In this document: one piece after another, positions 19,092 through 62,642 of the stretch
Numbering within the stretch: position 1 is the stretch's first letter
How the letters are laid out: every line of letters begins with the position of its first letter
Assembly (NCBI GenBank): GCA_963740355.1
Contig: CAVUDW010000003.1
Location: forward strand, 448,001 to 512,000
Origin: an uncultured Gemmatimonadaceae bacterium
GTDB lineage: Bacteria > Gemmatimonadota > Gemmatimonadetes > Gemmatimonadales > Gemmatimonadaceae
Length of the DNA: 64,000 bases
Direction: 5' to 3'
Notes under the pieces: model-generated
Seen by the model: only the letters and a program-made list of their open reading frames with translations
The model's database searches: none
What the model was told of the DNA's origin: nothing
Made by a program: the position numbers and the translations under genes

Positions 19092-20512
<1,421 letters not shown>

Positions 20513-20553: not shown

Positions 20554-21687
<1,134 letters not shown>

Positions 21688-33773: not shown

Positions 33774-33871
33774 ACTACGAGGTCCAGCTGAAGACCGGTA
33801 TCAGGCTGCCCGTGAGCCGGTCCCGGCACACCGCGCTGGAGCGGTGGCTCGGGCTGTCGCGTTGACATCCG
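33771..33871 (+). repeat. 101-bp direct repeat, copy 2 (orphan LytTR 3' end)
   Basis: Encodes DYEVQLKTGIRLPVSRSRHTALERWLGLSR*; 96/101 identical to 17777-17877. Confidence 0.92.
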
Positions 33872-37042: not shown

Positions 37043-37130
37043 GAGCGCCACCAAGAGGCACCAGTTCGTTCACAGAACACGGGCTGCAGGCGTGAGCTTG
37101 GCCGCAACGCTTCGGCCGAGGTGGCCCGTA

Positions 37131-37952: not shown

Positions 37953-38030
37953 GTCCGCTTTGTCAGGTGTTTGGGGGGTTGTATGGCTACGACCGCATGC
38001 CCTGTCCGTTCCCGTCCGCACGTGCGCACC

Positions 38031-39497: not shown

Positions 39498-41199
39498 CGC
39501 GTGCCCAGACGCGGAGCGCATCCAGCGGTACACGAAGGTCGTCGCCTGCCTCCGAAAGTGCGGGGCCGACAACCGTCCGCGCAGCGACCTCCATATCGGA
39601 GACCGTCTTGAACCACGTCCCCTGCTTCGACTTGGCCGCCGCGCCGAGCACCCTACGCGCATCCTCCGTCATCGCGGCGCGGCACGCTGCGATCCCCAGA
39701 ATGTTAGAGCTGCGCGTGCGTACCTGGGCGTCGACGGTCGCCTCTGTGAGATTTTCGACGGCGAGATCGAGCAGTTCACCGACTGCCGATTCTGGCAATG
39801 CGGCGAACAGCGCATCCTCGAGCGCCTGCCCCGTGGCCCATGTGAACACGCGTCCACCGCCCTCGATGAAGGCGCCCTCGCCTGCAGGTGCGGTGCGCAG
39901 ATCACTGTCCCGCAGGATGGCTGTTGCGAAACCGAGTGACTGAAGGGCGGAGGCTTTCGGCACGACCTTGCTGTCGCCGCCACCGTCGATGTAGACGACG
40001 CCAGACGCCGAGAGTGTGTCGCGACCGCGGTCATCCTCGTGCTGGTCGAGCCCACGCAACAGCCCGACCTCGGTCGCACCCTCGCACACAACGATGGCGC
40101 GTGCGAGGAGCGCCTCGGGATATACGCGAACCGTTCCCTGAACAGCGTCCGACGAACCGACGTGACGGCAGATATGCTCACCGCTCACCTCACGGCGGAG
40201 TACGAAGAGTGCATCTCCGGACATTTCACGGATCGCGACCGGTGAGTGGGTCGTCAGGAAAACCTGCGCAGACGGCTCCCGATCTTTCGCACCGAGGGCA
40301 TCAAGTAGCCTACAAAGGCGAAACGGCTCCAGACCATGCTCGACCTCGTCGACGAGCACAATGGACGCGCCGCCGTCCAGCTCACGTTGTAGACCCGCAG
40401 CAAGGAGCCGCAGCGATCCCGTACCGAGTGCCTGCAGCGGGACGCCGTCGCTGGTGTGCAAAGCGATGGTACCGCGACCGAACGCTACGGACTCAGCGTC
40501 TAGCATGGCTCTGAGCCCGCTCCCCACCCTGATGCCAAGGCGCGTCGCCTGAGCCAGAATTGCAACGAGCGCACTCTGGAGCTCCGGCGCATTTTGGTCG
40601 CCAAAAGCGTTGCGAGCTTCGCGAGCCGCGGTGGCAAGCGCCGCGGCCGCGTTCGGGAGGTCGGTCGTCATGCGGCTGAGGAGGGAGCCGTGTCGCCAGG
40701 CAAAGTGGTATCCAGCCCCAGCCCCGATACGCATCGGCGCGAGTTGCGCGCGCTGAGCCCAAGGTAGCCCGCGCTGCTGGTCCAACGCGGCCGCACGATC
40801 CGAGTAGAGCGCCCACGTCGGTTCGAGAGACTGATCGACCGTCAGGACGAGAGTGACGACGGTCTCGTGTCCGACACCAGGCTCGTCAACGACGCGGCTC
40901 TCGGCCACGTCGAAGCCACGCAGATAAATGCCGAATGCATCGATGTCGAGGAGCGCCTCGGGCAGATCACCAACCGTGGCAGCGATCCGGATCGGCTGCG
41001 ACGCATCAAGCCCGTGGAAGTCGGCGTCTGTAAACGTCAACGAGCGTCGCGCACCAAGACAGTAGTCAAGGGCGTCGAGCACCGTCGACTTCCCCATGTC
41101 GCCCGGTCCGACCAAGCCATTGAGACCAGGGCGCGGCACCCACGAAAGACGGCGAATGCAGCGAAAGTTCTCGATTTCCAGCAGCCGAATGCGAGGCAT
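39484..41199 (-). CDS. gajA: OLD-family ATP-dependent nuclease (ABC ATPase plus TOPRIM), Gabija A-like
   Basis: IENFRCI, Walker A GPGDMGKST, Walker B LVDEVEHGL, TTHS, TOPRIM VCEGATE and RDSD. Confidence 0.85.
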   Translation of the reverse strand: MPRIRLLEIENFRCIRRLSWVPRPGLNGLVGPGDMGKSTVLDALDYCLGARRSLTFTDADFHGLDASQPIRIAATVGDLPEALLDIDAFGIYLRGFDVAESRVVDEPGVGHETVVTLVLTVDQSLEPTWALYSDRAAALDQQRGLPWAQRAQLAPMRIGAGAGYHFAWRHGSLLSRMTTDLPNAAAALATAAREARNAFGDQNAPELQSALVAILAQATRLGIRVGSGLRAMLDAESVAFGRGTIALHTSDGVPLQALGTGSLRLLAAGLQRELDGGASIVLVDEVEHGLEPFRLCRLLDALGAKDREPSAQVFLTTHSPVAIREMSGDALFVLRREVSGEHICRHVGSSDAVQGTVRVYPEALLARAIVVCEGATEVGLLRGLDQHEDDRGRDTLSASGVVYIDGGGDSKVVPKASALQSLGFATAILRDSDLRTAPAGEGAFIEGGGRVFTWATGQALEDALFAALPESAVGELLDLAVENLTEATVDAQVRTRSSNILGIAACRAAMTEDARRVLGAAAKSKQGTWFKTVSDMEVAARTVVGPALSEAGDDLRVPLDALRVWARDVVA

Positions 41200-41282
41200 G
41201 AGTGAGTCTTAGGGGTTCTACTGCACGCAGGCGATCATCGGACGAGGAAGGCACGCGGCGCTGAATCAGAGCTTGACGCTCA

Positions 41283-44200
41283 TCACGCCGCCCACCGCTC
41301 CGTCAACAACTCCGCCTGCTCGATAACCGTCTTCACCGCCATCTCCTGCTTGTCCGGCGGGTACCCGTACTTCTTCAAGATCCGCTTGACCATCAACCGC
41401 AACTTCGCCCGCACCGACTCGCGCACCGACCAGTCCACCGTCACGTTGGCCCGGATCGTCTTCGTCAGCTCCTGCGCGATCATCCTGAGCTGCGCGTCCC
41501 CCAACACCGCGACCGCGCTGTCGTTCACCTCCAGCGCCTCGTAGAACGCCACCTCGTCATCCGTCAGGCCCAGCGCATCACCGCGCGCCTGCGCCTCCCG
41601 CATCTGCTTCGCCAGCGCGATCAACTCCTCGATGACCTGCGCTGTCTCGATGGCCCGGTTCCGGTAGGCGCCGACCGACCGTTCGAGCATCTCGGCGAAC
41701 GACCGTGACTGCACGAGGTTGCGCCGCGACCGCGTTTTGAGCTCATCCTGCAGCAGCTTGCGCAACAGTTCGACGGCGAGGCTCCGCTGCGGCATGTCGC
41801 GCACGTCGGCCAGAAACTCGTCCGACAGGATGGACAGGTCGGGCTTCTGCAGCCCGGCGGCCGCGAACACGTCCACGACCCCCTCGATGGCCACGGCGCG
41901 GCTCACGAGCTGGCGGATGGCATGCTCCATCTCGGCCTCGCTCCGGCCCGGCCCGACCGTGCTCTTGGCCAGTGCTGCCTTGACGGCCTGGAAAAAGCCG
42001 ACGTCGTCCCGCACACGCAGTGCGTCGGGGTGCGGCACGCTCAGCGCGAACGCCTTCGACAGTTCCGCGACCACCTGGTAGAACCGCTGCTGCCCGTCCT
42101 GCTGCGCCAGCACGTGCTCCTGTGCGGTCGGGAGAAGCGCCAGCCGCTGCGACGCGGTGCCGGCGGCCCAGGCGCCCCAGTCGAAGCCGTGGAACAGCGA
42201 GCAGCAGACCTCGTGCTTCTCCAGCAGCACTGCGACGGCTTCGTTCTGGTCGATTGTCGCCCGCCCCTTCCCGCCCCCCTGCGTGTAGTCGGCGAGGGCG
42301 CGCTTGAGCTGGTCGGCGAGGCCGAGGTAGTCGACCACCAGCCCACCCGGCTTGTCCTTGAAGACGCGGTTCACGCGCGCGATGGCCTGCATCAGCCCAT
42401 GCCCGTGCATCGGCTTGTCCAGGTACATCGTGTGCAGGCAAGGCGCGTCGAACCCGGTCAGCCACATGTCGCGCACGATCACGATCCGCAACGGGTCTGC
42501 AGGATCCTTGAGACGCTCGGCCAGCTTCTCGCGCCGCGCCTTGTTGCGGATGTGCGGCTGCCAGTCGAGCGGATCGCTGGCCGAGCCGGTCATGACGACC
42601 TTCACGACGCCGTGCTCGTCGCCGTCGGCATGCCAGTCAGGCCGCAGGGCGATGATCTCGCGAGAGAGCGCGAGGCAGATCCGGCGGCTCATGCAGACGA
42701 CCATCGCCTTACCGTCCATGGCTTCCAGCCGCCGCTCGTAGTGGGCCACCAGGTCCGCCGCGATCTGTTTCAGCCGTGGCTCTGCGCCGACCAGCGCCTC
42801 GAGCGCCGCCCACTTGGTCTTCAGGCGTTCCTTGCGCTCGACTTCCTCGCCTTCGGTGGCCTCGTCGAAGGCCTCGTCGAGCGTGGGCTTCGCCTCATCA
42901 CGCAACACCAGCTGGGCCAGCCGGCTCTCGTAGTAGATCGGGACCGTGGCGCCGTCCGCCACTGCCTGCTGGATGTCGTAGACCGAGATGTAGTCGCCGA
43001 AGACGGCCGTGGTGCTCCGGTCATCTGCTTCGATGGGCGTTCCGGTGAAGCCGATGAAGCTGGCGTTTGGGAGCGCATCGCGGAGGTGGCGCGCGAAGCC
43101 GTCGATGAAGTCGTACTGACTTCGGTGTGCCTCGTCGGCGATCACCACCACGTTCCGGCGGTTGGTCAGCACCGGGTACGTCTCGCCCTGCGCAGCGGGG
43201 GCGAACTTCTGCACGGTGGTGAAGATCACGCCACCGGACGCCCGCTGCAGCAGCGTGCGCAGTTCATCGCGCGAGCCGGCCTGCTCCGGCTCCTGGCGCA
43301 GCAGCTCCCGACACCCGGCGAAGGTGCCGAACAACTGATCGTCCAGATCGTTCCGGTCCGTCAGAATGACGAGGGTTGGGTTCTCCATCGCCGGTTCGGT
43401 CACGAGGCGCCCGGAGTAAAAGGCCATCGTGAGCGATTTCCCCGATCCCTGCGTGTGCCACACCACGCCGACACGCCGATCACCCGTTGGCCGCGCCGCG
43501 GCGACGGTGGCGCCCACCGCCGTCTCAACGGCGTGGAACTGGTGGTAGGCGGCCAGCTTCTTGGCGGGCTCGCCGTGGGCCCCCTCCTCGAACACGATGA
43601 AATGCCGTAGGAACGTCAGCAGCCGCCTGCGGTCGAAGAGCCCGCGGAGCAGCACCTCGAGCTCCGGCAGGGTGCTCGGCGCCAACGTCGCGCCGTCCAC
43701 GGTGCGCCATGGCATGAAGCGCTCGAAGTCCGCCGTGAGCGACCCGACACGTGCCTTCAGACCGTCTGACGCGACCAGCAACGCGTTGTGGTGGAAGAGC
43801 GACGGCAGCTGGGACTTGTAGGTCTGCAGCTGCTGGTAGGCGCCGACCACGGTCGCCTTCTCGTCGGCCGGGTTCTTCAGCTCGACGATGGCGATGGGGA
43901 GACCGTTGAGGTACACAATCACGTCGGGTCGACGCTTGTGACCGCTCTCGACGACCGTGACCTGGTTCACCGCAAGCCAGTCATTCGCCTCTGGGTTCGT
44001 GAAGTCCGCGACGCGCACGAGTGCCCCGCGGATGGAGCCATCGGGACGCACGGTCTCCACCGGCACGCCGTGCACCAGGAGATGGTGCAGCGCGTGATTC
44101 GCGTCAACGAGAACGATGGCGTCGGAGCGCGTGAGCCGGCGATGCGCTTCGGTGAGCGCTGCCGCAGGCAGACCGGGGTTGAGCCGGGCGAGTGCTGCTC

Positions 44201-44369
44201 GGAGGCGGTCGATGAGCACCACGTCACCGTACGATGCGCGCTCGGGTGCCGAGCCGTCCGGGGCGAGGTCGGGGCCATGCGCGATGGCGTAGCCGAGGTC
44301 CGCGAGCAGGTCGAGAGCGACGACCTCGACTTCCGACTCGGTGAAGAACGACGGGGAGGCGGGGGTCAT
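41283..44369 (-). CDS. hsdR: Type I restriction endonuclease subunit R
   Basis: [56 protein letters not shown] overlap with hsdS. Confidence 0.96.
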
Positions 44370-45595
44370 GGAGTTTGCGCGAGCTCGCGTTCTTCGTAGC
44401 GGACGCGAAGGTCGCCTGAGAGGAGGCACGGCAGCAAAGTGTCGCGCAGCTCGGCAAGGGTCCGGTTCTCGTCCCGTGCCTGCTGGATGCGCTCAAGAAG
44501 TGGTGCTCCAACGGCGTCGAACTGGGCCAGCGCCAGTCGTGAAGGAAGACTGACGTGAATGGCGAGTACATCATCCGGGCGCACTCGCTGATGGCTGTTG
44601 GAGGTACCCGTGACCGTCGAGCACAGAGCAGTCCGAAACGGAGTGCTTGTGAGTAGTCCGTACAGATAGGCACGCGTCGCGCAGCTCTGCGGGACGAACA
44701 CCAAGAACTCGGTGGAGCAAACTGCCGCGTCAGCATCGTTGACGTTCGGCACCCACACGCGCTCCGTGCTCGGATTCAGCTTGGAGAGGAGCACACTTCC
44801 GGCAGGAACCACGAACTTGTTGCTGAGAATGGCTGCACCGGTCTCGCGCACGGGCTGCAGTTCAGCATCGAAAGCCGGGATGCTGAAGTGCGAAAACATG
44901 CGATCAGGTTCGCGACCAGGAGAGACTCCGTCACGAACTAGTTGCGCGATGTCACCAAGACAACGTGGAGGTCTTGGGCTGTCGTGCTCCAATTCCATTC
45001 GCGCGAACAGCATGCGAAGCATACAGTCGAGCGTGTCTATCGTGCGCCAGTTCAGTTCGATCTTGTCGTCGAGCGCACCAAGGACCTCCGCTATTCGGCG
45101 CTGTTCAGCGAGCGCCGGCAGCACTAGTGGCAGTCGACTGATCACGTCCGTGTTCAAATTCGGCATCACAGCGCCAACTGCATGTGCCTTGAGCCAGTCG
45201 ATGGCACTTCGATCCGCAAGCGCGAACGAAACGAAAGACGGATCCACTCGCTGACGATCAACACGAAGAAGGATCGCACCTGTGCCACACAGCCATCCCG
45301 CGTGACGGCTTTGCACCAACGCTGACAGCCCTGTGGCCTGCACGCCTCGTCGCGCGAACAAAATGTCTCCGTCGCGGACAACGTGGCGAGCGAGCCGCTC
45401 CACTGTTGCCGGCGAGACTTGCGGCAGGCCTTGCTCCATCAGCGTGCGCCTGCCTATGGCCTCGGTCGGTATGACTGGGGTGCCGGAGGCGACATAGTCG
45501 TGCGCATGCAGCTGTGAGCCGAACGGCCCCGTCTGCAACGACGCTGCGCCCGATGCGATCATGTCGCCGATGGTAGTTTCGCGCCAATCGCTCAT
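44366..45595 (-). CDS. hsdS: Type I R-M specificity subunit
   Basis: Two TRDs with conserved spacers [24 protein letters not shown] and [15 protein letters not shown]. Confidence 0.93.
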
Positions 45596-47205
45596 GCGCT
45601 CTCGTCCATCGACGTCGCACGCGCCGATGACGGTCGTATGGGCAGCGAAAAACCGACCGACGCCAGCCCATGGCGCAACCGGTCATTCAATGCCGCCGCC
45701 AGCTCAAGCTGTGTGGCGAGCCGGTAGGTGAGTTCGGCCATGCGGGTCTCGGTTGACTCAGGGTCTTCGTCCATCACCGACGTACCGACGAACCGGCCTG
45801 GCGAGAGGGCATACCCATGCTTCCGCACTTCTTCGAGCGTAACCGCCCGACAGAAGCCCGCCGTGTCCGAGTACATCGCCGCGCCCGTGTCACCGCGCCA
45901 TGCATGGTACGCCCCGGCCACCAACGCTACGTCTTCCGCGGTCAACTCTCGGTGGACCCGTGACGCCATGCGCCCGAGCTGCCGAGCGTCGATGAAGAGC
46001 GTCTCAGTGCGCCGATCCCGAAATCGTGGGTCACGCTTGTCGCGCGCCAGGAACCAGAGACAGACTGGGATCGGCGTCGAGTAGAAGAGCTGACCCGGCA
46101 GCGCCACGATGCAGTCCACTAGGTCTCCCTCGACGAGCGCCTTTCGGATCTCTCCCTCCCCGCCCTGCTGCGTGCTCATGCTACCGTTGGCGAGCACGAA
46201 TCCAGCGACGCCGCGCGGCGCGAGGTGATGCACGAAATGCTGCACCCAAGCAAAGTTCGCGTTCCCGGCTGGCGGCACGCCGTACTCCCACCGCACGTCC
46301 TTTTGGAGGAGCGGCTGCCCCCAGTCCGAGATGTTGAACGGTGGGTTCGCGATGACGTAGTCCGCGCGCAGGTCACGGTGCAGGTCCTCGTGCAGCGTGT
46401 CCGCGGGCTTCAGCCCAAGGTTGGAGTCGATCCCGCGAATGGCGAGGTTCATCTGCGCCAGCCGCCACGTCGTCGAGTTCAGTTCCTGCCCATAGACGCT
46501 GATCGCGCCCACACGCCCACCGTGCGCCTGCACGAACTTCTCGCTCTGCACGAACATTCCGCCCGACCCGCAACACGGGTCGTAGATGCGCCCCTCGTAC
46601 GGGGCAAGCATCTCCACCAGCAGCTGCACCACGGAACGCGGCGTGTAGAACTCGCCGCCGTTCTTGCCCTCGGCACTGGCGAACTGCCCCAGGAAATACT
46701 CGTACACGCGCCCCAGCAGGTCCTTGGCGCGGCTCTCGGCGTCGCCCACCCCCACACCCGAGATCAGGTCCACCAGCTCGCCCAGACGGCGCTTGTCGAG
46801 CGACGGGCGGGCGTACTCCTTCGGCAGCACGCCCTTGAGCCGCGGGTTGACCAGCTCAACGGCGTGCATGGCGTCGTCAAGCAGCGTCCCGATCTCCGCC
46901 GTCTTGGCCTTCGCCTGAAGCGCCGACCACCGCGCCGCGACCGGCACCCAGAACACGTTGTCTGCGGCGTACTCGTCGCGGTCCTCGGGGTCCGCGCCGT
47001 TCGCCGCGTCGGCCAGCAGCGCGTCGTACTTCTCCGCGAAGGCATCGGAGATGTACTTCAGGAAGATCAGGCCGAGGACGACGTGCTTGTACTCGGCAGC
47101 GTCGAGGTTGCCGCGGAGCTTGTCGGCGGCGGCCCAGAGGGTGGCCTCGAGGCCGAGGGGGGCGGCGGCGCTCCCATTCTTGCGACTGCTGGTACGTGGC
47201 GGCAC
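45592..47205 (-). CDS. hsdM: Type I R-M N6-adenine methyltransferase subunit M
   Basis: [31 protein letters not shown]. Likely start GTG 47205. Confidence 0.96.
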
Positions 47206-47418
47206 AGGCGTGGCTGATGGGGACGGTTGCGGCGAGGACGACCGTGTGAAGGTATCCGGCGGCGGCGCGCCCCACAGCCTCGTCGCGGGCGCTTTCGGAT
47301 GTAAATGCGCCCTGTCGGAAATCGTACATTGGCGGTCGCCGGCCATGTCGATAGGAGGGATCCCGCCGGGCAATCGCGTTCGGCGATCCTCCCAGACGGA
47401 ATCCTCGCAGCGGAGCGA

Positions 47419-47591
47419 TACCGGTACAGCCGACCGCCGCAGAGGGGTATGACGCCGCGTTCGTCTCCGAACCGGTACGGACTGCAATTGAGCCGTGAAA
47501 GAACGCGTACCGGTATGACGGACGTCCCGAATTCCGGTACGCGGGTGGCTGTACCGGTACATCGTGACGTCGGCTGCAAGCGTACCGGAAC
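47419..47591. repeat. Cluster of six GTACCGGTAC-like palindromes
   Basis: CCGG cores at 47421, 47472, 47510, 47534, 47554 and 47585; perfect TGTACCGGTACA at 47550-47561. Confidence 0.8.
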
Positions 47592-49189: not shown

Positions 49190-50026
49190 TTATTTCACCT
49201 TCGGAAACTGGTCGTCCTCGGTCGCGCGCGTGTTGCGCCATAGCAATTCGCTTGACTGCACGTCCTTGCGGCCCGCCAGGAACAGATTCCAGCCATTGAT
49301 GATCATCGCCGCGACCGACGGCCCGCGCAGCTGCGTCTTGGCGCCCTTGCCGCGCATGCTGAGGAGCCGCTTCCGCAACTCGAACGCTGGATTGCCCTTC
49401 CCGATGTTCTCGCCTTCCTGGATCAATTCGATCCATTCCTCGGCCCTCCTCGCGTGTTTCTCGTGCGCGAGACAATACACCATCGCCAGCTGCGCATGCG
49501 GCTGGATCACGCTGCTCTGCACCACCTGCTCCACGGCATCGGGCAGGAACGGGTGCGCCTTGATCGTGCGCTGCAGGGCGGCATACGACACCGCCGGTCC
49601 ACTACTCGCCAGTTTATCCAGGTCGTAGTAGTAGAGCGATTTGGCGGCGGCTGCCAGCTTCCTCGCATTGGCGACGCCGTTGATCTGCATCGCATCCGCC
49701 ACCGACCGCGGTTTGTTGGTATCGATGACGGCCATGGCGCGCGGATCAAGATTTCGGGCCACGTAGACGCTGATCGACCGACCGCTCTGCACGACCGCCG
49801 TCAGCCGGTGCTGGCCGTCGATCAGCTCGCCCTTTCGGTTGAATCGCACCGGGTCAAAAGTCTGCCGCCAGTCGCCGCGGCGAATGTCGTCGGCGAGCCG
49901 GTCCACATGCGTGGCGTTCAGACGACGATTCGCGCCCATGGTCGACAACCACTCGGTCGCGAGTTCCGGCGTGACCTCGACGAGTTCGAGGCTTGCATCG
50001 GTGCTTGCAGGGGGCACGGTGATCAC
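49190..50026 (-). CDS. ParB/Srx N-terminal-like (DGQHR) protein of the phage/mobile-element type (start uncertain)
   Basis: VTPELATEWL..NRRL....V.RLADDIRRGDW...DPVRF...GELIDGQHRLTAVV..IDTNKPRS. Confidence 0.8.
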   Translation of the reverse strand: MITVPPASTDASLELVEVTPELATEWLSTMGANRRLNATHVDRLADDIRRGDWRQTFDPVRFNRKGELIDGQHRLTAVVQSGRSISVYVARNLDPRAMAVIDTNKPRSVADAMQINGVANARKLAAAAKSLYYYDLDKLASSGPAVSYAALQRTIKAHPFLPDAVEQVVQSSVIQPHAQLAMVYCLAHEKHARRAEEWIELIQEGENIGKGNPAFELRKRLLSMRGKGAKTQLRGPSVAAMIINGWNLFLAGRKDVQSSELLWRNTRATEDDQFPKVK

Positions 50027-50451
50027 CTGAGCGTGGGGTGGTTGGCCGCAGCGAGACCGGCTGCGTATGACCGCGCCGACACTGGGGACGCTGTCATGCT
50101 CGCAACGTACGGCGACGCACGTCTGCCGGTCAATTCGCGGCGCGAAACGAAGCCCGCAACCACCACGACGGCTCGCAGGCGACAAAGCCGCTGTCTCAGC
50201 GATGATTGCGGCCTGGCGCTCAGGAGACATCGCCGTCTACAGACCTGGTATGCGTCGAATCACGTGCGCGGGAAGGTCACCACAGAGCCAGGTCGCGACG
50301 GCATGGAGGCCCATCGTCTCGGTGGCGACGCGCGTCGAATGCGCGCGGCTGGCGCTCGCGCCCGCCAGCGATCACTGCATCATCGGGGCAACGCGACGAA
50401 TCCGCCGTGTGTGCACGCCGCGCGGCGAGCCTCGAATTCCACGCACAATTG

Positions 50452-50601
50452 CAACGTGTTGCGTGCCTTTGACTTACCCTACGAGTCCCAACGTGTCCTC
50501 GCGAATGTGTGCGGGATTCAGTCGCTGAATACGACCACGATCAACGACTCGACTCCGCACACGGCGACGCTGTAAGTCCCCGTATGTCCCCGTGTGTCGC
50601 G
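50452..50601. promoter_or_regulatory. IHF-like site, palindromes and 10-bp tandem repeats upstream of the recombinase
   Basis: CAA-cgtg-TTG at 50452, ATTCAG-tcg-CTGAAT near 50516, and GTCCCCGT at 50576 and 50586. Confidence 0.5.
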
Positions 50602-53201
50602 TCCACGTGACGCCGATTGCACATACGATGGCCGCCCTCGTGCAGGGCACCGCGGCCCCCAGCGGCCTGCACACAGCCTCCGGTACGCTCGCCGTACAAC
50701 CCGATCCGAGGCTGATCATGCAGACCACGCACGCACCGCTCGACCCGTCGCACCCCATCACGCTCCCGATGCTGCGCGTCGCGGCGTCCGTGCTCGACGA
50801 AACCGTCATTGCCGCCGCAACGCGGCGCTCCGCACTCTCCGATCTCGAACATACGCTGGCCACGCAGCTCAACGCCCATCTCCAACTCGGCTCTGAACCC
50901 GAAGCGCGCATTCAGTTGGACCCACCTGCGCATCTGGGTCGCGCACCGATGGACATCCGTGCCTTTCTGCCTGGCAGCGCGATGGCCGCACACGCCCGGG
51001 CGAAGCGGCTGAAGCACGAGCGGCCCGACAACGCGCGTCGTCGGATCGAACGACTGCTGACGGCGCTCGCGCCGTGGGCGCTGTCCGCACGCGCGTCGGC
51101 AACGCCCTGCCCCGTGCTGACGGAGTTCCACACCCTCGCCAACCGCGTGGGAGACGTGAGCGCGGTCACCGGGAAAGAGCAGCGCAGGATCGGACATCTG
51201 CAGCTCGGCATGCGCCGTTTCGCGCGCATCGCGGCTTCACACGGCGTCATCACCGTTGCGGAGCTCCCGACGACCACCGATGCGATGATCACGATGCTCG
51301 CCACGTGGGGCCTGGCACCCTCGCTGCGCAACCACATGATGTGGACGCTCCGCGCCGTACGGCGGCTGCTCGCTGACGACATCGTCGCGCCACGCCTCCC
51401 CTCGTGGTCGCCGGTGTCCATCGGCGACAATCAGCAGCAGCGCATCGATGAGCGACTCCCTGAACTGGCGCGCGACGTGGAGACCTGGGAGTCGCTGTCG
51501 TCGATGAAGGTCGGCGACCGCGCCGCCGGGAATCGCTCGCGCACGGCGCATGAGGCGCTCACCGCCAAGACGCAGTACGTATACCGCGCCGCCATGCGGC
51601 AGTGGGCGTCCGCGCTGCTGACGCTCGTCGACCGTGGACTGCTCACGATTCCGGACCTGCCTGCGCTGAACGTCGAATCGTTGTGGTCGACCAGCGCTGA
51701 AGGGAGCGCACCACGACCGCTGCCAGGCAACGCGGAGGCGCTGTTGGCGGAACGTCGTGCGCGCCGTGGGCGGCCCACAAATCGAGCGGACGTTCGCGTC
51801 GTCCGCCCCCTCGCCCTCGCGGTGATCGATCTGGCACTCGACCATGGCCTGTTTGAGCGCGCCGCGCGCGATGCTGACGGACACTGGCCGAAGTCTGCGG
51901 CGCAGATGGCATTCCGACTGTGGAGCATCACGGAACGGGTCGCGCTCGGCACTGATGGCGACGAGGCATCGGAATTGCTCGCGCTCCGAGCCATCTGGAC
52001 GGCACACCTGCCATCGATGAAGGACATCCTTACGAAGGAGTCGTTTGTGAAGGATCACGTTCGCATGCTGCAGATGGTCACGCTGCCGCAGGTCGTCTGT
52101 TTGATCCTCCCGTGGTGGACGCTGCACGAACTCCCTCGTCTCGAGCGCGAGGCAATCCAGCTGCGCATCCGTGCCTCACGGCCGGGTGCATCCCAGGCGT
52201 CAGCGGCCCGTGCACGTGAGGCGCATGAGGCATTCATCGCTGGGCTCGATGCGTACATCGCCCTCGCGACGTTCGTGGCCGAGCCGAGCCGGATCACCAA
52301 CGTCACAAATGCACGCACGGGGAAGGAGGTGATGATCGACGCGGAGTGGTCTCACAGCGGTGACCTGCTCGCATTGCACGGCATCGGGACGAGCTTTCCC
52401 GGTCGTGATGAAGGCGAGATCGCCGAGGTGACGACCAAGACTGGTGAGGCCCGGCCGACGTGGCGCTGGTCGCCGACGATCATCGACCGGCGCTGGTTCG
52501 CGCGGTACCTCAAAGAGTCGTGGCTCCCCGCGTTGCGCGCCACAGGACACGTGAAGCACGACGAGACGCTGCAGTCCGCGGTTGCCAGTGGACGATTCGC
52601 GTGGTTTGCCAATGCCGACCCGCGCAGTGATCGCGCACAGGCCGTCGCGGGTGCGTTCCGCGCCACGAGCAGCGTGGCGGAGCGATTCGGTTACGCCCTG
52701 CTGCTGGGGCTGCGCGCGATGGGTCGCACCGATCTCCCGACCAGCGTCGACACGGCAGCAGTCGAAGGATACGCGTACATGTTCCGCCCCCATGCCGCTC
52801 GGCTGTGGTGGGGCACGTACTGGTTCATGCGAGGCGAGCACGGTCCGAAACGCGCACGTCCTGATGGTGGCGTCGATGCGGTGTCGGGCTGGCAGGTCGC
52901 GATGCGGGCGACGTGCGACAAAATGGTGACGCTGGAGAAGCACTATGTGAAGCTGAGCGCCACGATGCAGGAACTGATGCGAAGCCCGCTCACGTCGGTT
53001 GAGCATCCCAACGCGTATGATCATCTGCTCGACCGGACGTGGTGGCACGATGCGCCAACCGATTGGAAGCGCGTCTGGCGCGACCCGAAGACGGTGTTGC
53101 CCGGCAACCTTCGCGCACTGGTTGAACGCGACGGAGCGACACCACCACCGTCTCGGCCGTCGTGCCGCAGCGGCACCCGACGCCGAGCTATGGCGGCGTA
53201 A
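50592..53201 (+). CDS. Very large divergent tyrosine recombinase-like protein (likely start ATG 50718)
   Basis: Catalytic residues in the expected order (869-aa numbering): R567 (AEPSRITN), K616 (TTKTG), H734xxR737 (RPHAARLWWGT), D776 at Y-9, Y785 (TLEKHY). Confidence 0.72.
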   Translation: MCRVHVTPIAHTMAALVQGTAAPSGLHTASGTLAVQPDPRLIMQTTHAPLDPSHPITLPMLRVAASVLDETVIAAATRRSALSDLEHTLATQLNAHLQLGSEPEARIQLDPPAHLGRAPMDIRAFLPGSAMAAHARAKRLKHERPDNARRRIERLLTALAPWALSARASATPCPVLTEFHTLANRVGDVSAVTGKEQRRIGHLQLGMRRFARIAASHGVITVAELPTTTDAMITMLATWGLAPSLRNHMMWTLRAVRRLLADDIVAPRLPSWSPVSIGDNQQQRIDERLPELARDVETWESLSSMKVGDRAAGNRSRTAHEALTAKTQYVYRAAMRQWASALLTLVDRGLLTIPDLPALNVESLWSTSAEGSAPRPLPGNAEALLAERRARRGRPTNRADVRVVRPLALAVIDLALDHGLFERAARDADGHWPKSAAQMAFRLWSITERVALGTDGDEASELLALRAIWTAHLPSMKDILTKESFVKDHVRMLQMVTLPQVVCLILPWWTLHELPRLEREAIQLRIRASRPGASQASAARAREAHEAFIAGLDAYIALATFVAEPSRITNVTNARTGKEVMIDAEWSHSGDLLALHGIGTSFPGRDEGEIAEVTTKTGEARPTWRWSPTIIDRRWFARYLKESWLPALRATGHVKHDETLQSAVASGRFAWFANADPRSDRAQAVAGAFRATSSVAERFGYALLLGLRAMGRTDLPTSVDTAAVEGYAYMFRPHAARLWWGTYWFMRGEHGPKRARPDGGVDAVSGWQVAMRATCDKMVTLEKHYVKLSATMQELMRSPLTSVEHPNAYDHLLDRTWWHDAPTDWKRVWRDPKTVLPGNLRALVERDGATPPPSRPSCRSGTRRRAMAA

Positions 53202-53289
53202 GCCGGCACCGTGCCCGCAGTGCATTCTGCGGGCACGGTGCCGGTCTCACTGGTGCTCCGCGCACGGCTTGTTGCACGTGCCGCGAACG

Positions 53290-53553
53290 TCAGAGGCTGT
53301 CGTCGACTCCGCGGATCGTCGACAGATGCTGTCGGATGAGGCTCGCATCACCATGTACCAGACCATGGACGCCCGTCTTTCGTTTCTTGAGGTCGAGCGC
53401 CTGCACCCAGTAGTGACGCAGCGCCGCATCATCGGAGGGAAGGAGCCGACGGCGGAGCGTCTTCACGCACACGCCAACGAGGACTGCGATTTCAGACAGC
53501 GTGAGTCGGCCTGGGCCGGCGGAGCGCCTGCGGCGCGGATTCTGTGAGGGCAT
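53290..53553 (-). CDS. Small HTH protein (excisionase/RDF-like)
   Basis: LTLSEIAVLVGVCVKTLRRR HTH pattern; basic, 87 aa, convergent with the recombinase. Confidence 0.6.
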   Translation of the reverse strand: MPSQNPRRRRSAGPGRLTLSEIAVLVGVCVKTLRRRLLPSDDAALRHYWVQALDLKKRKTGVHGLVHGDASLIRQHLSTIRGVDDSL

Positions 53554-55005: not shown

Positions 55006-55617
55006 GTTATTCTCCGGTCAAAAGACTGCGAGACCGCATTGCCCGAAGGCGTCAGTATGACGCCGTGCGTCGACGGCAGGTGCGATGCCTGGCAGGGAGA
55101 TCCACGCTCGCCTCGACATGCTTCTTTTACGACGCATAAACGCGGCCATCGCTTCACATCCGTACATGTGCACCGGCCCCATGTGTCCGTCACGGCATCG
55201 GTCCGCATCATGTACGCACGCCGAGATAGGTGCGCTCCGGCATGCGTCTGGTGTGCTGGGACCTGAGACGTGCAGCACGTGCACACCGGAAGGCCGAACG
55301 GCGAGCCGGCATCGGTGACGCCAACGCTGCGCGCGACGCACAGCGAACCTCGTATCGCAAGTGCATATGGACATGTGCGCTGGGGAGATCGCGACCACGA
55401 GCGCGGATGGCTTTGGCGTTGACCACCGGCGTCAGCAGCACACCAATGGTGCAGGCGCAGACGCAGCAAGCGGAAGCGCAGCATGAGTGAATGGTGCGTC
55501 GCGCACGAGCGCATGACTCATCATCTCGTTGACGAGTACGGTGACCGACGTCAGTGGTGGTACGATTCGAGTATGCCTGCCCTATTGCCTCATGGGACGA
55601 TTCGCCCACCGACTACC

Positions 55618-56960
55618 GTGTGACGACGACGGTAGCTCAACCCGACATCGACGACGCGCTGCTCGACACGATTGAATGCCGCGCTCTCTGCTACTTCCTC
55701 GACATGGCACATCCGCTGACCGGCTTGGTCGCGGACAGCACGATGCCCGACACCGTCTGCAGCATTGCGGCGGTCGGCATGGCCCTCGGGGCGTACCCCG
55801 TCATGGTGGAGCGTGGACTGCTGTCGCGGGACGAGGCGGTCGAGCGTACCCTGCGCGTCCTTCGCTTCTTCCGCGACAGCCCGCAGGGCGAGGCTGCGGA
55901 CGCGACCGGGCATCGGGGCTTCTACTACCACTTCCTCGACATGGAGACGGGCCGACGGGCGTGGCGCTGCGAACTCTCGACCATCGACACGGCCCTGCTC
56001 CTCGCTGGTGCCCTTGCCGCTGCGTGCTACTTCGATGGGGACGCCGGGGGCGAGCCGGAGATTCGCACCGTCGCCGACGCGCTCTACCAACGAGTGGATT
56101 GGCACTGGGCACTGAATGGCGAACGAACGCTCACACACGGATGGCGACCGGAGTCGGGTTTCCTGCCCTACCGCTGGCGTGGATACGACGAGGCGCTGAT
56201 TCTGTACGTCCTTGCACTCGGCTCGCCGACGCACCCGATTACCGCCGACTGCTACACGGCGTGGTGCGCGACGTATGCGTGGAAATGCATCGACGGCCAC
56301 TGGCTGCTCTACGCCGGCCCGCTCTTCATTCACCACTTCTCCCACCTCTGGATCGATTTCCGTGGGATCCACGACGCGTTCATGCGTGACAAGTGTGCCG
56401 AGCTCGGCACGCCGTTCGACTATTTCGAGAATTCCCGCCGCGCCACACTCGTCCAAGGAGGCGTACGCCGTCCGCAACCCGCTCGGCTTTGCCGGCTATT
56501 GCGACTGCTGCTGGGGATTCACTGCCTGTCATGGCCCCGGCCCGGTCACGGAGGTCGTAGACGGCGTGGAGCGCCGGTTCCTCGGGTACAGCGCGCGCGG
56601 TGCGCCGTACGGGCCGGACGACGGTACGATTGCGCCGTGGGCGGCGGCCACCTCGCTCCCATTCGCCCCGGAGGTCGTGCTCCCCACGCTCCGCCGATTT
56701 CATGCGCTCCATGTTGGGGAGCGCAGCCGCTACGGGTTCGAGTCCGCATTCAACCCCACGTTTCCGGGGCAGGATGACGACGGAGGCGGCTGGACATGCC
56801 CCTGGGTCTACGGCATCGACCAGGGCGCGCTCGCGCTGATGTTCGAGAACCACCGCACGGGGCTCGTCTGGGATCGGCTACGGCGCTCGCCCCACCTGCG
56901 GGCCGGACTCCGTCGCGCCGGGTTCGACGGCGGGTGGTTGGACGCGCTGGCCGACTCCCG
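55618..56960 (+). CDS. Glucoamylase-family (GH144-like, putative beta-1,2-glucanase) protein, frameshifted near 56457; 3' end uncertain
   Basis: SIAAVG, GFYYHFLD, ELSTIDTALL, WRGYDEAL, GPLFIHHFSHLWIDFRG, then in the next frame DDGTIAP and YGIDQG. Confidence 0.82.
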
Positions 56961-57042
56961 CCAGCGCCGTCAGTCCAGCTGCACAACCATCGCACTCGAC
57001 CTTGTCCTCGTCATCCTCACCACTCCTTCAGGCTCCATCGCC

Positions 57043-58122
57043 ATGACTGATCCTCGAACCATCCGCGTCGCCGTCAACGGCTACGGCGTCATCGGCAAGC
57101 GCGTCGCCGACGCAGTCGCTCTTCAGAACGATATGACGCTGGCCGGCGTCGCCGACGTGGCGACGGACTGGCGCGTCGCCGTGGCCCGCGCCAAGGACTA
57201 TGCACTATACGGTGCAACGCCCGAGCACACCCTAGCGATGACGGAGGCCAAGCTCGACCCGCCGGTCCCCTCGATGACCTGCTGAACGCTGCTACATCGT
57301 CGTGGACTGCACGCCGAAAAAAGTGGCCGCCCAGAACATCGCGCGCTATCGCGAGCGCAAGATTCGATTCATCCTGCAAGGTGGCGAACAGCACGCGGTC
57401 ACGGGGCACTCGTTCACGGCCAGAACGAACTACCACTCCGCACTCGGGCGCCACAGCACGCGTCGTGGTCGTGCAACACTACCTCGACGGTACGGACGCT
57501 CGCCGCGCTCAAGCGGCAGGTCTGCTCAAACGAGCGCGCGGCACGTTGCTGCGCCGTGCCACCGACCCGTGGGAGGCCACGCTCGGCGGCATCGTGAACA
57601 CCCTCGTCCCCGAGCCGGAAATTCCCAGCCATCAGGGTCCCGACGCGCAAACCGTCGACCCCGATCTCGATGTGGTGACGATGGACGGTCGAGGTGCACG
57701 GAGACCGTTGCGCATCTGCACTACTCTGGGCCGTGCAACTCACGCGAACGGCCTCGAAGGATGAGGTGCTCGCTGCCTTCCGCACCTCGACCCGCATTGC
57801 GTTCATGCACACGTCCGACGGTCTCGTCGCACTGAATTCAGTCAAGGAGCTGATGTCTGATCTCGGTCGACCCAACGCCAACCTCTACGAGGTCGCACTC
57901 TGGGCGGACATGCTGACTGTGCAGGGGGACGAGGCGTTCTACGCGTACATGGTCGATAATCAGGCCATCGTCATCCCCGAGACCATCGACGCCATCCGAG
58001 CGCTCACGGAACAGGAGGCGGACGGCGCGGAGTCGATCCGGAAGACCAATGCCGCCCTCGGTATCACGGGGCGATTGGTGCCCGAGTCAGGGCGTCACGT
58101 GGGCCCAGCGACGGTGATCTAG
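57043..58122 (+). CDS. Archaeal-type (class II) glyceraldehyde-3-phosphate dehydrogenase, several frameshifts
   Basis: [51 protein letters not shown] across 4 or more frame segments. Confidence 0.85.
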
Positions 58123-58162
58123 CCACGACTACCCCGCGTTCGATGCCAGCATAGTCGTCGTG

Positions 58163-60440
58163 TCAGCGGCTCTGCCACGGCGTCCACCGCCAGTCGCGCA
58201 CCTCTTTCATATCCTCGCCATGCTCGATCACGTACTCCCTGTGGCGGGCGATGGTGGCATCGTATCGCGCCGTGGCCCCGGCAACGAGATGCTGCAGTCG
58301 TGGAATGCGGCGGATCGCGTCCAACGCCAGGCGGTAGCGATCGACCTCGTTCAGCACGACCTGATCGAACGGTGTCGTCGTCGTGCCTTCGTCGATGTAG
58401 CCGCGAACGTGAATGTTCGCGTGGTTGGTCCGGCGATGCGTCAGCTTGTGGATCATCGCCGGGAAGCCGTGAAACGCGAAGATCAGGCGTGTCGGTCGTG
58501 AACAGCGCGTCGAACTGGCGATCGTCCAGGCCGTGGGTGTGCTCGCTGCCCGGCTGGAGCACCATCAGGTCGACGACATTGACGACGCGGACGCGCAGGT
58601 CGGGGACATAGTCGTGCAGCAACATGACGGCCGCCAGCGCCTCAAGCGTCGGCACGTCACCGGCGCAGGCCATCACGACCTCGGGCTCGCCCGCATCGCT
58701 GGCCCAGTCCCAGATACCCGCGCCCGCGGTGCAGTGGCGGACCGCTTCGTCCATCGTCAGCCACTGCCATTCGGGCTGCTTGCCGGCGATGATCAGTTGA
58801 CATAGCCTCGGCTGCGTAGCGCGTGATCGGCGACCGACAGCAGGCAGTTCGCATCCGGCGGCAGATAGATACGCGCGACGTCGGACGTTCGGTTGGCGAT
58901 ATGATCGATGAAGCCGGGGTCCTGGTGCGACTGGCCATTATGGTCCTGTCGCCAGACGTGAGAGGTCAGCAGATAGTTGAGCGACGCGACGGGCCTGCGC
59001 CACGCGATCCCGTTGCTGACCTTCAGCCACTTCGCATGCTGGTTGACCATCGAATCGACGATGTGGACGAACGCTTCGTAGCACGAGAACAGCCCGTGCC
59101 GCCCGGTCAGCAGATACCCCTCCAGCCAGCCCTGGCACAGATGCTCGCTTAGTACCTCCATCACGCGGCCATCCTGCGCGAGGTTGATATCAAGCGGCTG
59201 GGTTTCGGCCATCCACGTCTTGCCCGACACGGCATAGGTTGCGTCAAGCCGGTTCGACGCGGTCTCGTCAGGGCCGAACAGGCGAAAGTTTGCCGCGTCG
59301 AGGTTGAGCTTCATGACTTCGCGCAGGTACGAGCCGAGCACTCGGGTCGCCTCAGCCGACGTCGCGCCGGGCGCAGGGAAGCGCAACCGCATAGTTTCGA
59401 AAATCGGGCAGCGAGAGTGGCTTCAGCAGCGTCCCGCCATTGGCATGCGGGTTCGATCCCATCCGCCGTCGTCCGGTTGGCGCGAGCGAGGCATAATCCT
59501 CGCGCGCCTGTCGTCGTCGAACAGCTCGCCGTGCCTGTAGCTTTGCATCCAGTCTTCGAGCAACTCCAGGTGGCCGGGCTTGCTGAAATCCGAGATGGGT
59601 ACCTGGTGCGATCGCCACGTGCCCTCGACCGGCTTGCCGTCGACAAACTTCGGGCCGGTCCAGCCCTTCGGCGTTCCAAAGACGATCATCGGCCAGCGCG
59701 GGCGTCAGCGCAACTTGTACCGATCCCGGCCCAAGCGCCCGGCTGACTCGCGCTTATCTGCGCCAGTACGATGTCGAGTGTTCCGGCCAGCTGTTGGTGG
59801 AAGGCGTCGGATCGTCCCTTCAACAAAATGCGGCTCATAACCGTAGCCGCCAAACAGGGCGATCAGTTCGAGGCGGGGGATACGCTCAAGCATCGTCGGA
59901 TTGGCGATCTTGAAGCCGTTGAGTGCAGGATCGGCAACACTGCACCATCGCGGGCTGGGTTCAGGAATTTGTTGGAGTGCCAGCTGCCGGCCAACGCAGC
60001 CGTCTCAGCCTCGCCGTCACCAATAACGCAAGCGACGATCAGGTCCGGATTGTCAAACGCAGCGCCATAGGCATGCGCAAGCGAATAGCCGAGTTCGCCA
60101 CCTTCATGGATAGATCCGGGAATTTCGGGCGACACATGGCTCGATACGCCACACGGCCACGAAATTGGCGAACAGGCGATGCATACCGTCGCGGTGGCGC
60201 TTGATCGCCGGATAGGTCTCGGTATAGGTGCCCTCGAGATAGGTATTGGCGACGAGCCCCGGGCCGCCGTGACCGGGTCCGATGACGTAGATCATGTCCA
60301 GATCGTGCTCGACGATCAGCCGGTTGAGATGGACGTAAAGCAAGTTGAGACCCGGCGTCGTACCCCAGTGGCCGAGCAGACGCGGCTTGATGTCGGCCAG
60401 CGTCAGCGGCCGTTCGAGCAGCGGATTGTCGCGGAGGTAT
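58163..60440 (-). pseudogene. xfp: Phosphoketolase, heavily frameshifted and lacking its N-terminus
   Basis: [82 protein letters not shown]. Confidence 0.9.
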
Positions 60441-62642
60441 CGCGACGACGATGGTGCTCACGGACATCAGAATGGCGCCGACCGCCGGCGTCAGCACGAT
60501 GCCCCACGGCGCCAGCACACCCGCTGCGAGCGGAATCGCGACAATGTTGTAGCCCGCCGCCCACCACAGATTCTGGCGCATCTTGGCATACGTGGCGCGC
60601 GAGAGGTTGATGATGCGCGGCACATCGCGGGGATCGCTGCGCACCAGCACGATGTCGCCTGCCTCCACCGCGACGTCGGTCCCCGCGCCAATCGCGATAC
60701 CCACATCAGCCGTCACCAGCGCCGGTGCATCGTTCACCCCGTCGCCGACCATCGCCACGCGCTTGCCCTGCGCCTGCAGCTTCTGAATCTCCGCCGCTTT
60801 GCCTTCCGGCAACACCTGAGCAAGGACCGTGGTGATGCCAACCTCGTGTGCCACGGCGTCGGCGACGGCCTTTGCATCACCCGTCATCATCACGACCTCG
60901 ACACCCGCGTCCTGCAGCTGCTTCACGGCATCTGCGGCCTCTGGACGAATCGCGTCGGCCACGGCAAAGCTGGCGAGGACGACCGTGCCTTCGACGAGCG
61001 ATATCACGGCTTGCCCGAGTGCCGCCGCCTCGGTCGCGAACTCTCCGAACTCCGGTGCCGGCGAGACCTTGAGATCCGCCAGGAGGTTGGGGCCACCGGC
61101 CGACAGCGACCCGCCGGACACAGTGGCACTCACGCCACGGCCCGGAATCGTCGTGAAGTTCGTCGCAGCAGGCACCTCGAGCTTCCGATCCGCCGCGCTC
61201 TGCACGATGGCCTTCGCGACGGGATGCTCGGCATCGCGTTCCATGGAGGCTGCCAGACGCAGCGCCTCGTCCTCGCTGAGTCCTGACGTCGTGCGCACGC
61301 CCACGACACGGTGCTGGCCAAGTGTCAGGGTTCCCGTCTTGTCAAACACCACCGCCGTCAGGTTGCGCGCCTCTTCGAGGCCACGCCGGTCGCGAATCAA
61401 CAAGCCGTTCCTGGCGCCCATCGTCGTGGAAATCGCGAGCACGAGTGGCACCGCGAGGCCGAGCGCATGCGGGCACGCAATCACAAGCACCGTCACCAAT
61501 CGCTCGACGGCGGTGGCGAGCGTCGCACCGGACAGCAGCCACGCGGCGAAGGTGATGGCTCCGGCACCGAGCGCGACCCAGGTCAGCCAGAACGCCGCAC
61601 GATCCGCCAGCACCTGCGCGCCCGACTTCGACTTCTGTGCCTCAGCGACGAGGCGCATGATACCCGCCAGCGCGGTACGATCACCGGTACCCGTCACCGT
61701 GACCCGCAGAGAGCCGGCGCCGTTCACCGTACCGGCAATCACCTTCGCCTGTGCGGTCTTCTCGACCGGTGCCGATTCACCAGTGATCAGCGACTCATCG
61801 ACCTTACTCGTGCCGGACACCACCACACCATCGGCCGGCACATTCGCGCCCGGTCGCACGAGTACGGTATCGCCATCGTGCAGCTCGCTAATCGGCACGT
61901 CCTCGGTGGTCTCGGCACTGCCTTCACCGGTCACACGGACGGCCGTTGTCGGCAGCAACTTCGCGAGTTCGCCGAGGGCGCCTTCTGCCTGCGCCACCGA
62001 GCGCATCTCGAGCCAATGCCCGAGCAACATGATCGTGATCAGTGTTGCCAGCTCCTCCCACAACGGCATGGCGGGAAAGCCGAGGGCGACTGCTGCGCTG
62101 AATACAAAAGCCACGCTGATGGCGAGCGCAATCAGCGTCATCATGGCGGGCTGGCGATCCTTGATCTCGCCGACAGCACCGCGCAGAAACGGCGCGCCGC
62201 CGTAGACGAACAGCGCCGTGCCGAAGAGCGCCGGGATCCAGTGCGACCCAGTGAACGACGGCGGTGTGAAGCCCAGCGCGTCCGGGAGCATGTGCCCCCA
62301 GATCAGCGGCGGAATGGTCAGTGCAAGCGAAATCCAGAACTTGTCGCGGAACATCGCGACCGAGTGGCCAGCATGCTTGTCGTGGCCAGCGTGTTCGTCG
62401 TGCCCACCGTGCCCGGCGTGCGGATCAGGCGTCGTGTGCGTCGCCCCCCGTTTCATGCCGTGATCGGTGGCCATCTCGTGGCCCGCGTGCGTCTCTTGTG
62501 CGGTGTCGGTGTTCGGACTCGCCGTCGCGACCGTCTTCGGGGCCTCGGTGTGCCCGTCATGATCCGCATTCGGCGACACGCCGGACGCATCGACCGTCGA
62601 CGGAACGTCAAGCACGTGCGGTAGTCCATCTGGCTCACTCAT
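60440..62642 (-). CDS. copB: P1B-type copper-exporting ATPase (CPH type, His-rich N-terminus); last few codons replaced
   Basis: [28 protein letters not shown] and MSVST; N-terminal HAGH repeats. Confidence 0.92.

Follow-up and report, generated by a model that had tools for sequence, protein, structure and literature searches.

A large tyrosine-recombinase-like protein of Gemmatimonadaceae and its conserved upstream site: a candidate recombination module of two genes

Does the cluster of three genes at positions 49,190 to 53,553 of a 64,000-nucleotide stretch of DNA from an uncultured Gemmatimonadaceae bacterium (contig CAVUDW010000003.1; the whole stretch is called the window here) form a minimal integrative element, and do all three genes belong to it? 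A preliminary description had proposed this, seeing a giant recombinase, an excisionase-like helix-turn-helix (HTH) protein and a ParB-fold accessory protein between a defence island and a copper island. The three open reading frames (ORFs) are at the claimed places and in the claimed arrangement. A ParB/Srx-like gene with a DGQHR motif (49190..50017, minus strand, 275 aa) and a large tyrosine-recombinase-like gene (50718..53201, plus strand, 827 aa) are divergent, with 700 nt between them; the latter and a small putative HTH gene (53290..53553, minus strand, 87 aa) are convergent, with 88 nt between their stops. The recombinase gene, a cis region upstream of it and the small protein recur in Gemmatimonadaceae genomes, with flanks that differ each time. 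On balance, and with limited confidence, we favor a recombination module of two genes and one site, not of three genes.

The large gene most likely starts at ATG 50718, since homologues are 824–841 aa long, their alignments begin at the residue encoded by this codon and a GAGG precedes the ATG by 7 nt. The open frame extends back to a GTG at 50592, and the public annotation places the start at 50628. Searches with the 827-aa protein in Pfam and NCBIfam (E ≤ 10), PHROGs (E ≤ 1), PADLOC and PDB sequences were all negative, and tblastn against plasmid and phage records gave no homologue. A word-indexed search of 5.8 billion clusters returned six proteins of this family, and 46 representatives were found at E ≤ 0.001 among 1.84 billion proteins; the named members are all "hypothetical". 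The closest homologues, P0004 and P0005, are 88–90% identical. The family is thus rare and patchy, a distribution that we count toward mobility. Distant relatives align over the C-terminal 350 aa only, as expected for a conserved catalytic domain combined with variable DNA-binding parts.

The catalytic set of tyrosine recombinases is given as the pentad RKHRH plus Tyr (PMC8138268). An alignment of 38 family members (A1), with identity to the window protein down to 17%, shows conservation of R525 (38/38), K574 (38/38), H692 (35/38), R695 (37/38) and Y743 (37/38), and Arg, Lys, the HxxR pair and Tyr follow the canonical order of this set. The spacings exceed the canonical ones, with 49 aa between Arg and Lys, 118 aa between Lys and His, and 48 aa between the second Arg and Tyr. 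Local motifs were compared with integrases fetched from phage records: TTK574TG resembles SK235TG of lambda, and PH692xxR695xxx[A/G]T resembles HALRHSFAT of P2 Int. A TLxxxY motif is also found in the family. Protein-language-model neighbors in the ESM Atlas point the same way. Whole-protein matches fell in PF00589-bearing sets in 18 of 30 cases (top 0.97), with PF00589 in 16–57% of the members of neighboring clusters; these neighbors are Pseudomonadota proteins of 584–758 aa in which PF00589 labelling is partial. With residues 470–827, 20 of 30 named matches were in PF00589 sets at 0.96, and the protelomerase catalytic domain ResT-TelK_cat came lower, at 0.93. Because of the residue pattern and the language-model neighbors, the large protein is quite likely an enzyme of the tyrosine-recombinase superfamily. 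The earlier label "recombinase" is therefore plausible from catalytic residues and Atlas neighbors, but no family match accompanies it.

Related loci were sought by scanning species-representative genomes with an alignment of the ten closest recombinase members. Four were obtained (L001–L004), all in Gemmatimonadaceae assemblies, with recombinase identities of 35–38%. L001 includes 7.1 kb of upstream DNA, and all four include 8–10 kb downstream. By tblastn, a homologue of the small protein is encoded on the opposite strand, downstream of the recombinase, in three of the four (L001, L002 and L004). In L001 it is 81 nt from the recombinase, in L004 a single 470-aa ORF intervenes, and in L002 four cargo genes do so, encoding a PepSY protein, a two-component pair and a TonB-dependent receptor. 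The neighborhood comparison suggested earlier for this cluster thus recovers the small protein in three of four recombinase loci but the DGQHR gene in none. Two further pairs come from short contigs: recombinase fragments P0183 and P0186, from a cluster of 84% identity, are on contigs of 2029 and 2873 bp, and the HTH homologues P0176 and P0223 have the same source and equal contig sizes (2029 and 2873 bp), so they are probably on the same contigs.

Other neighbors are not shared in this way. The 470-aa ORF of L004 (11656–13068) overlaps the recombinase stop and has fragments in L003 (3211–4127); searches of Pfam, PADLOC, PHROGs, NCBIfam and PDB returned nothing for it. At E ≤ 1 no other conserved neighbor gene was found. 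Flanking genes otherwise differ in every locus and include metal efflux, restriction-modification (R-M) and regulator genes. In L003 the fragments of the 470-aa ORF are followed by CDF, ArsR and RND metal-efflux genes. In L004 the recombinase copy (10130–11659) encodes 509 aa; its N-terminal third is missing, as is the cis region, and directly next to it is a type I R-M cluster (257–9580) with RhuM, SocA/Panacea and DUF4357.

L004 also has IS630-type transposases at 15337–16443 and 19946–21013, four tandem 57-nt units just past the HTH homologue (13665–13899; 63–70% identity to the reference copy). Farther on, at 19711–19820, a stretch of 55 nt is exactly duplicated in tandem.

The region between the divergent genes is where the related loci are most informative. 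It had been described as repeat-rich, which holds in a specific sense: four exact GTGTGC/GCACAC motifs lie within 50409–50674, where about 0.3 would be expected (the window average is 67 per 64 kb), and this is the sole 300-nt stretch of the window with at least four of them. Nested inverted repeats are present as well. What the preliminary description overlooked is that the positions of these repeats are conserved across loci. A conserved region of about 300 nt (50407..50691, plus strand) precedes the recombinase gene and contains four motif sites. S1 (50407–50418) and S2 (50505–50516) are on the plus strand, S3 (50553–50564) and S4 (50615–50626) on the minus strand. Relative to the recombinase start, S1 is at −308 in the window, −299 in L002, −300 in L003 and −317 in L001; the corresponding offsets are −210, −201, −202 and −219 for S2, −161, −152, −153 and −170 for S3, and −99, −91, −92 and −108 for S4. 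The TGTG[C/A] copies are therefore ordered → → ← ← from S1 to S4 in the window and in L001, L002 and L003, and in all four the spacing is 98 nt from S1 to S2, 49 nt from S2 to S3 and 61–62 nt from S3 to S4. Each locus uses one variant of the motif at all four sites, TGTGAC in L001 and TGTGC elsewhere; the base preceding TGTGC is G in the window instead of T. An extra copy, S5 (50665–50676, minus strand), occurs in the window only, and the block GGTACGCTCG (50682–50691) also lies within the conserved region.

Local alignment of the upstream DNA gave z = 10.9 for the window against L001 and z = 10.5 for L001 against L003, in the plus orientation only, with reverse-strand controls at −1.4 to 1.7. 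The window, L001, L002 and L003 align over 220 gap-free columns. The region is kept in the window and in all three loci that retain the 5′ end of the recombinase gene, that is, in three of the four related loci. Between the distant loci, nucleotide identity is 0.43–0.56 in the upstream region, 0.48–0.50 in the recombinase gene and 0.35–0.40 at its third codon positions. The conserved part begins about 390 nt from the ParB-like start and is placed at constant distances relative to the recombinase start, but not relative to the ParB-like gene. The intergenic repeats are thus the most informative part of the locus and go with the recombinase gene rather than with its ParB-like neighbor. No conserved DNA was found ahead of the HTH genes (z ≤ 1.6).

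Two other features of this DNA were noted. A 9-mer, GCGWCGAAT or GCCTCGAAT, occurs in four copies between the ParB-like gene and S1 (50252–50437); it is not conserved in the other loci and may be due to chance. The contigs of L002 (1–20) and L003 (1–650) end 17 and about 650 nt upstream of S1, which may reflect strain-variable DNA just upstream of the cis region.

Between 134 and 249 nt before the start codon is a hairpin-forming imperfect palindrome of about 105 nt (50469..50584, plus strand). Its main stem arises from pairing of S2 with S3, its outer stem is CTTAC/GTAAG, and a conserved apex, ACGACCAC(GAT), is at 50531–50541. The structure was predicted by RNAalifold. Over 28 pairs in four sequences, 91% of the cells are paired, compared with 73% in shuffles and 23–44% in slid controls, and 14 of the 28 pairs change on both sides, a number reached by none of 500 shuffles; the structure was derived from the same four sequences as were counted, so the pairing counts are inflated. 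Single-sequence folds are alike in the four loci, with z of −2.8, −3.3, −1.2 and −4.1. Rfam 15 gave no match at E ≤ 1 in 50150–50800 and none at gathering score in the whole window.

A small ORF ending at a conserved TAA (50573–50575; …TTTI..S..H….*) looked peptide-like. A coding role was rejected because in L001 a TGA interrupts the frame eight codons ahead of the TTT motif and there is no common start before the 11-codon remnant.

The hairpin could be a transcribed leader RNA instead of a DNA site. On this account a 5′ leader or small RNA would control the recombinase, the TGTG sequences would be stem sequence only and the recombination site would be elsewhere. The compensatory changes, which include stems outside the TGTG motifs, speak for it, as do the placement of the element ahead of the start codon, its constant orientation to the gene in all loci and conservation confined to the plus strand. 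S1, a direct copy of S2, and S4 lie outside the hairpin, however, yet they change in concert with S2 and S3, and such concerted variants (TGTGAC in L001) fit sites read by one protein better than independent stems. Neither the Rfam searches nor a consensus scan gave support for an RNA family or a promoter, and the inflation of the pairing counts applies here too. We regard a leader RNA as the best-surviving of the alternatives, though improbable, and as partly compatible with a recombination module.

The second gene of the favored module encodes a protein with only five homologues in 5.8 billion proteins. The core of this small family is TL.EIA..LG....TLRRR…P..D…W…LD. The window protein itself has no family match. 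For the family, a PDB profile search pointed weakly to HTH domains of Lrp/AsnC type (E 0.03–0.15), and Pfam gave a weak HTH_24 match in two of eight members, with weak HTH_23 also in relatives. HTH_17, the excisionase-type family, matched one of the eight members at E 0.084, so the term "excisionase-like" is not specifically supported; a role as excisionase would follow from the position of the gene alone. A DNA-binding partner of the recombinase is nevertheless a plausible role for this protein.

From these features a mechanism can be proposed. The recombinase would bind the S1–S4 motif copies, perhaps together with the HTH protein; its C-terminal catalytic region of about 350 aa contains R525, K574, H692-x-x-R695 and Y743, whereas its N-terminal region, about 470 aa long, is mostly helical and specific to the family. 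A higher-order complex would then assemble on the upstream site, in the manner of lambda Int at the attP arms or of TnpI at the IRS, with the HTH protein serving as regulator or directionality factor. The module might move or rearrange adjacent cargo, which would be the defence island here and metal-efflux or R-M genes elsewhere. Across the window and L001–L004 the recombinase is found in differing genomic contexts with variable cargo, and the pair of recombinase and small protein sits in unrelated, cargo-rich surroundings, as a mobile module would. PADLOC assigned none of the recombinase, the small protein and the ParB-like protein to a defence system.

Several further observations weigh against this reading. 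PF00589 was detected in none of 38 recombinase family members (E ≤ 0.1), and PDB profile and single-sequence searches with the large protein returned no recombinase. Alignment with hhalign to four and then nine canonical recombinases gave probabilities of 0.1% and 0.44%, and the family hidden Markov model ranked Cre and P2 Int no higher than unrelated phage ORFs (176 ORFs). The fifth pentad residue (His or Trp) is replaced: none is conserved about 9–11 residues ahead of the Tyr in the 38 members, and the positions are instead occupied by D734 (36/38; Tyr −9) and T732 (38/38; Tyr −11). In the upstream site, a gap of 40 nt separates the S2 and S3 arms, much more than the canonical crossover spacer of 6–8 bp. 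The HTH assignment of the small protein is weak, and L003 lacks the small HTH gene. The comparison rests on four loci from about three lineages, all distant. Finally, no tRNA was found in the window, no att-type direct repeats bracket the module in the window or in L001–L004, and a second copy of the upstream site was not found. A covariance model of the site (R1) finds one per locus in 129,612 bases; considered as the other end of an element, a second copy had no candidate, since R1 recovered only the four training sites and their reverse strands. The earlier claim of a minimal integrative element is thus unsupported, and for the module the term "integrative element" is a matter of interpretation.

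The single site per locus and the lack of att repeats would suit a local switch, with the recombinase confined to the nested inverted repeats next to its gene: the roughly 200-nt S1–S4 segment would invert as a phase-variable promoter, or the site would resolve dimers or cointegrates, in either case without integration of an element. Four motif copies beside a recombinase gene, with inverted pairs S1/S4 and S2/S3, are compatible with this, and in the Tn4430 IRS four motifs bound by TnpI lie within 116 bp (PMC2847244). Across all four loci that have it, however, the S1–S4 segment is in one orientation; inversion leaves the unrelated contexts and the truncation in L004 unexplained; and there is no plasmid or phage homologue and no transposase consistently nearby. 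A local switch is accordingly unlikely.

We judge it about equally unlikely that the large protein is not a recombinase at all. Its R/K/H/R/Y pattern would then be coincidental, and it would be an unrelated DNA- or RNA-binding protein co-regulated with the HTH gene. Every profile and profile–profile test against tyrosine recombinases was negative, as this alternative would have it, the canonical pentad His/Trp is missing, and protein-language-model neighbors are leads and not tests. Coincidence is difficult to reconcile with five invariant or nearly invariant residues in canonical order in 38 sequences, in the contexts KTG, HxxRxxxAT and TLxxxY, and the Atlas matches are consistent for the whole protein and its C-terminal part.

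The ParB-like gene stands apart from the rest of the cluster. Its ORF (49190–50230, minus strand), which encodes IDGQHRL, is open to 50230, but the start is likely GTG 50017, because the public form (P0054, 275 aa), homologue lengths and codon-position GC agree: GC at the three positions is 0.64/0.44/0.82 in the gene and 0.69/0.63/0.66 in the 71-codon 5′ extension. The protein matches phrog_5931 at 7e-55. Of the earlier ParB/Srx label, what stands is the conserved DGQHR motif and a weak similarity to ParB-like PHROGs (2.5e-4), but no Pfam or NCBIfam model reaches threshold; in both collections the protein had no match at E ≤ 10, and a PDB profile search returned nothing. Among 39 homologues G68, H70 and R71 never vary, and conservation of D67 and Q69 is at least 90%. 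Weak Pfam matches to GmrSD_N (0.0029) and DndB (0.0054) occurred in one of the 39 each. DGQHR is common to the window protein, DndB and the GmrSD N-terminal domain/DUF262, but unlike DndB, GmrSD and ParB systems the window has no dnd, GmrD or ParA partner.

Full-length homologues were found in phages (90 records) and plasmids (20 records). The gene directly follows repressor/cro in the early operon of mycobacteriophage DeadP and of Pseudomonas phage phiAH14a; in phiAH14a its neighbors include a replication gene and the gene of a ParBc-like nuclease. One plasmid homologue, in fused form, carries the annotation ParB/RepB/Spo0J. Whereas the phrog_5931 family of phages occupies this early position after cro or the repressor, the window gene is beside a recombinase, and none of its neighbors in the window is phage-like. 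The ParB-like gene is best read as an independent gene of phage or plasmid type that is a chance neighbor of the module in this genome only.

That it belongs to a three-gene minimal integrative element, as accessory protein acting at a shared intergenic region, is very unlikely and already largely refuted. The gene is divergent, 700 nt away and shares the region of the motif array, and its family is typical of mobile DNA, with the position right after cro/repressor genes in two phages. By tblastn, though, none of the four related loci has a homologue (the sequence available ahead of the recombinase is short in L002 and L003, 0.3 and about 0.95 kb). Close homologues (76–79% identity) are on contigs that include ones of 142, 34 and 13–17 kb, and of the 36 contigs with close homologues none equals in size any of the 14 with recombinase homologues. 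The ParB-like family is also far more abundant, with clusters of 26, 15 and 4 members compared with 2, 1, 1 and 7 for the recombinase, and the spacing of the cis region follows the recombinase start.

Least probable of all is a structure-directed recombinase, whose roughly 470-aa N-terminal region would read the hairpin either as a folded single-stranded DNA site, such as attC for IntI and the CTX attP for XerCD, or as a non-coding RNA cofactor choosing the DNA partner.

The two-gene module lies in a window that is GC-rich (about 0.62–0.72). Between the convergent stops is a perfect 18-6-18 hairpin (53203..53244, no strand) with folding z of −6.4 and −8.4; at the corresponding spot in L001 is a 17-6-17 hairpin whose sequence is unrelated. 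It has no T-run, and a consensus scan found no terminator; it resembles a bidirectional terminator. As a recombination core it was rejected, given the unrelated sequence in L001 and the lack of a hairpin in L002 and L004, where genes abut. PHROG, NCBIfam and PDB searches with the unknown ORFs flanking the recombinase gave no match.

The islands on either side are as described earlier. The defence island (35687–47562, all on the minus strand) consists of bSEFIR (35687–37054), a DUF3800 gene (37131–38021), GajB (38031–39662) and GajA (39484–41199), which together are Gabija, and hsdR/hsdS/hsdM (41283–47562), a type I R-M system. On the copper side are a copper-type P1B ATPase (60039–62642; TIGR01511 match above cut-off) and a fragment of a CopM-like metallochaperone at the window edge (63632–64000). 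A scan of the 55 larger window ORFs found no relaxase, replication or phage structural domains, in agreement with the preliminary description.

An att-like repeat is present elsewhere in the window (17777–17877 and 33771–33871; 95% identity over 101 nt, 88.6% at the protein level). It consists of the last 35 codons and the stop of a LytTR response-regulator gene (16933–17871, plus strand), repeated 16 kb downstream, a pattern typical of an insertion of about 16 kb into the 3′ end of that gene. No recombinase is encoded in the segment, whose products are a CDF transporter, aldo-keto reductases, a paralogous kinase/LytTR pair, a carboxylesterase and a Mo-hydroxylase; the right repeat copy abuts the defence island. 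A connection to the module was ruled out, as there is no third copy near the recombinase. Genes for a glucoamylase, a type II GAPDH, a phosphoketolase, an AcrB-type pump and a PD40-repeat protein are split across frames (55554–59689, 6464–9060 and 13565–15417). Since the breaks are scattered over the whole window, assembly indels and real pseudogenes are equally likely.

Integrative elements are usually recognized by their tyrosine recombinases, which surveys find through sequence profiles. Such surveys would miss a family that has the catalytic residues but lacks profile similarity, and the cargo it may move includes anti-phage defence genes here and metal efflux elsewhere. Literature searches on large or giant, Gemmatimonadota or RNA-guided tyrosine recombinases returned no description of this family. 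The conserved cis site, with its exact spacing and covariation, makes binding and recombination assays easy to design, and excluding the ParB-like gene keeps a wrong three-gene "system" out of annotations. If the hairpin were a substrate or cofactor, structure-specific recombination would extend beyond integrons, and the structure-directed reading, if true, would add a new class of tyrosine-recombinase system outside integrons, in Gemmatimonadota.

How does the module compare with known systems? Large (>550 aa) proteins of the tyrosine-recombinase fold that standard searches miss are known from SE, GInt, Tn554 and RIT elements, which carry operons of three recombinase-fold genes (intA-tfp-intB-srap, ginABCD, tnpABC and ritABC), with Tfp and GinC lacking catalytic residues (PMC10214605). 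The window, in contrast, has a single gene with conserved catalytic residues, in a different phylum, and no second recombinase-like ORF was found beside the recombinase gene in the window or the related loci. Integrons associate a tyrosine recombinase with an imperfect palindrome, as does the window; attC is about 60–140 nt long and conserved in structure more than in sequence (PMC2727003). Unlike attC, there is one window hairpin per locus and no cassette array, the R″/R′ consensus is absent, the hairpin is upstream of the gene in the same orientation, and the protein has no IntI-type sequence similarity.

Two systems are closer. The heterobivalent integrases of the lambda Int/Xis and P2 Int/Cox modules share the R…K…HxxR…Y catalytic set with the window protein, these modules have the gene of a small DNA-binding partner beside the recombinase gene, as the window does with its putative HTH gene, and the window motif copies span 200–300 bp beside the gene, like the attP arm sites annotated in the lambda and P2 records. 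The window protein, at 827 aa, is more than twice the length of these integrases (337–356 aa) and, unlike them, has no PF00589 or hhalign match; no core with a 6–8-bp spacer was recognized, no att duplication or tRNA target was found, and the partner is not detectably of the Xis/HTH_17 type. TnpI requires no further enzyme, and its site is built from a single motif present four times, as two inverted and two direct copies (PMC2847244). It thus shares with the window the combination of a tyrosine recombinase and a compact four-motif site. The IRS is 116 bp long with IR1 and IR2 4 bp apart, whereas the window array is about 220 nt long and its inverted pair lies 40 nt apart around a hairpin; TnpI is a small canonical recombinase, and the window has no Tn3-type transposase nearby. 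Judged by these analogies, the module would work most like a heterobivalent integrase module or a TnpI/IRS-type system.

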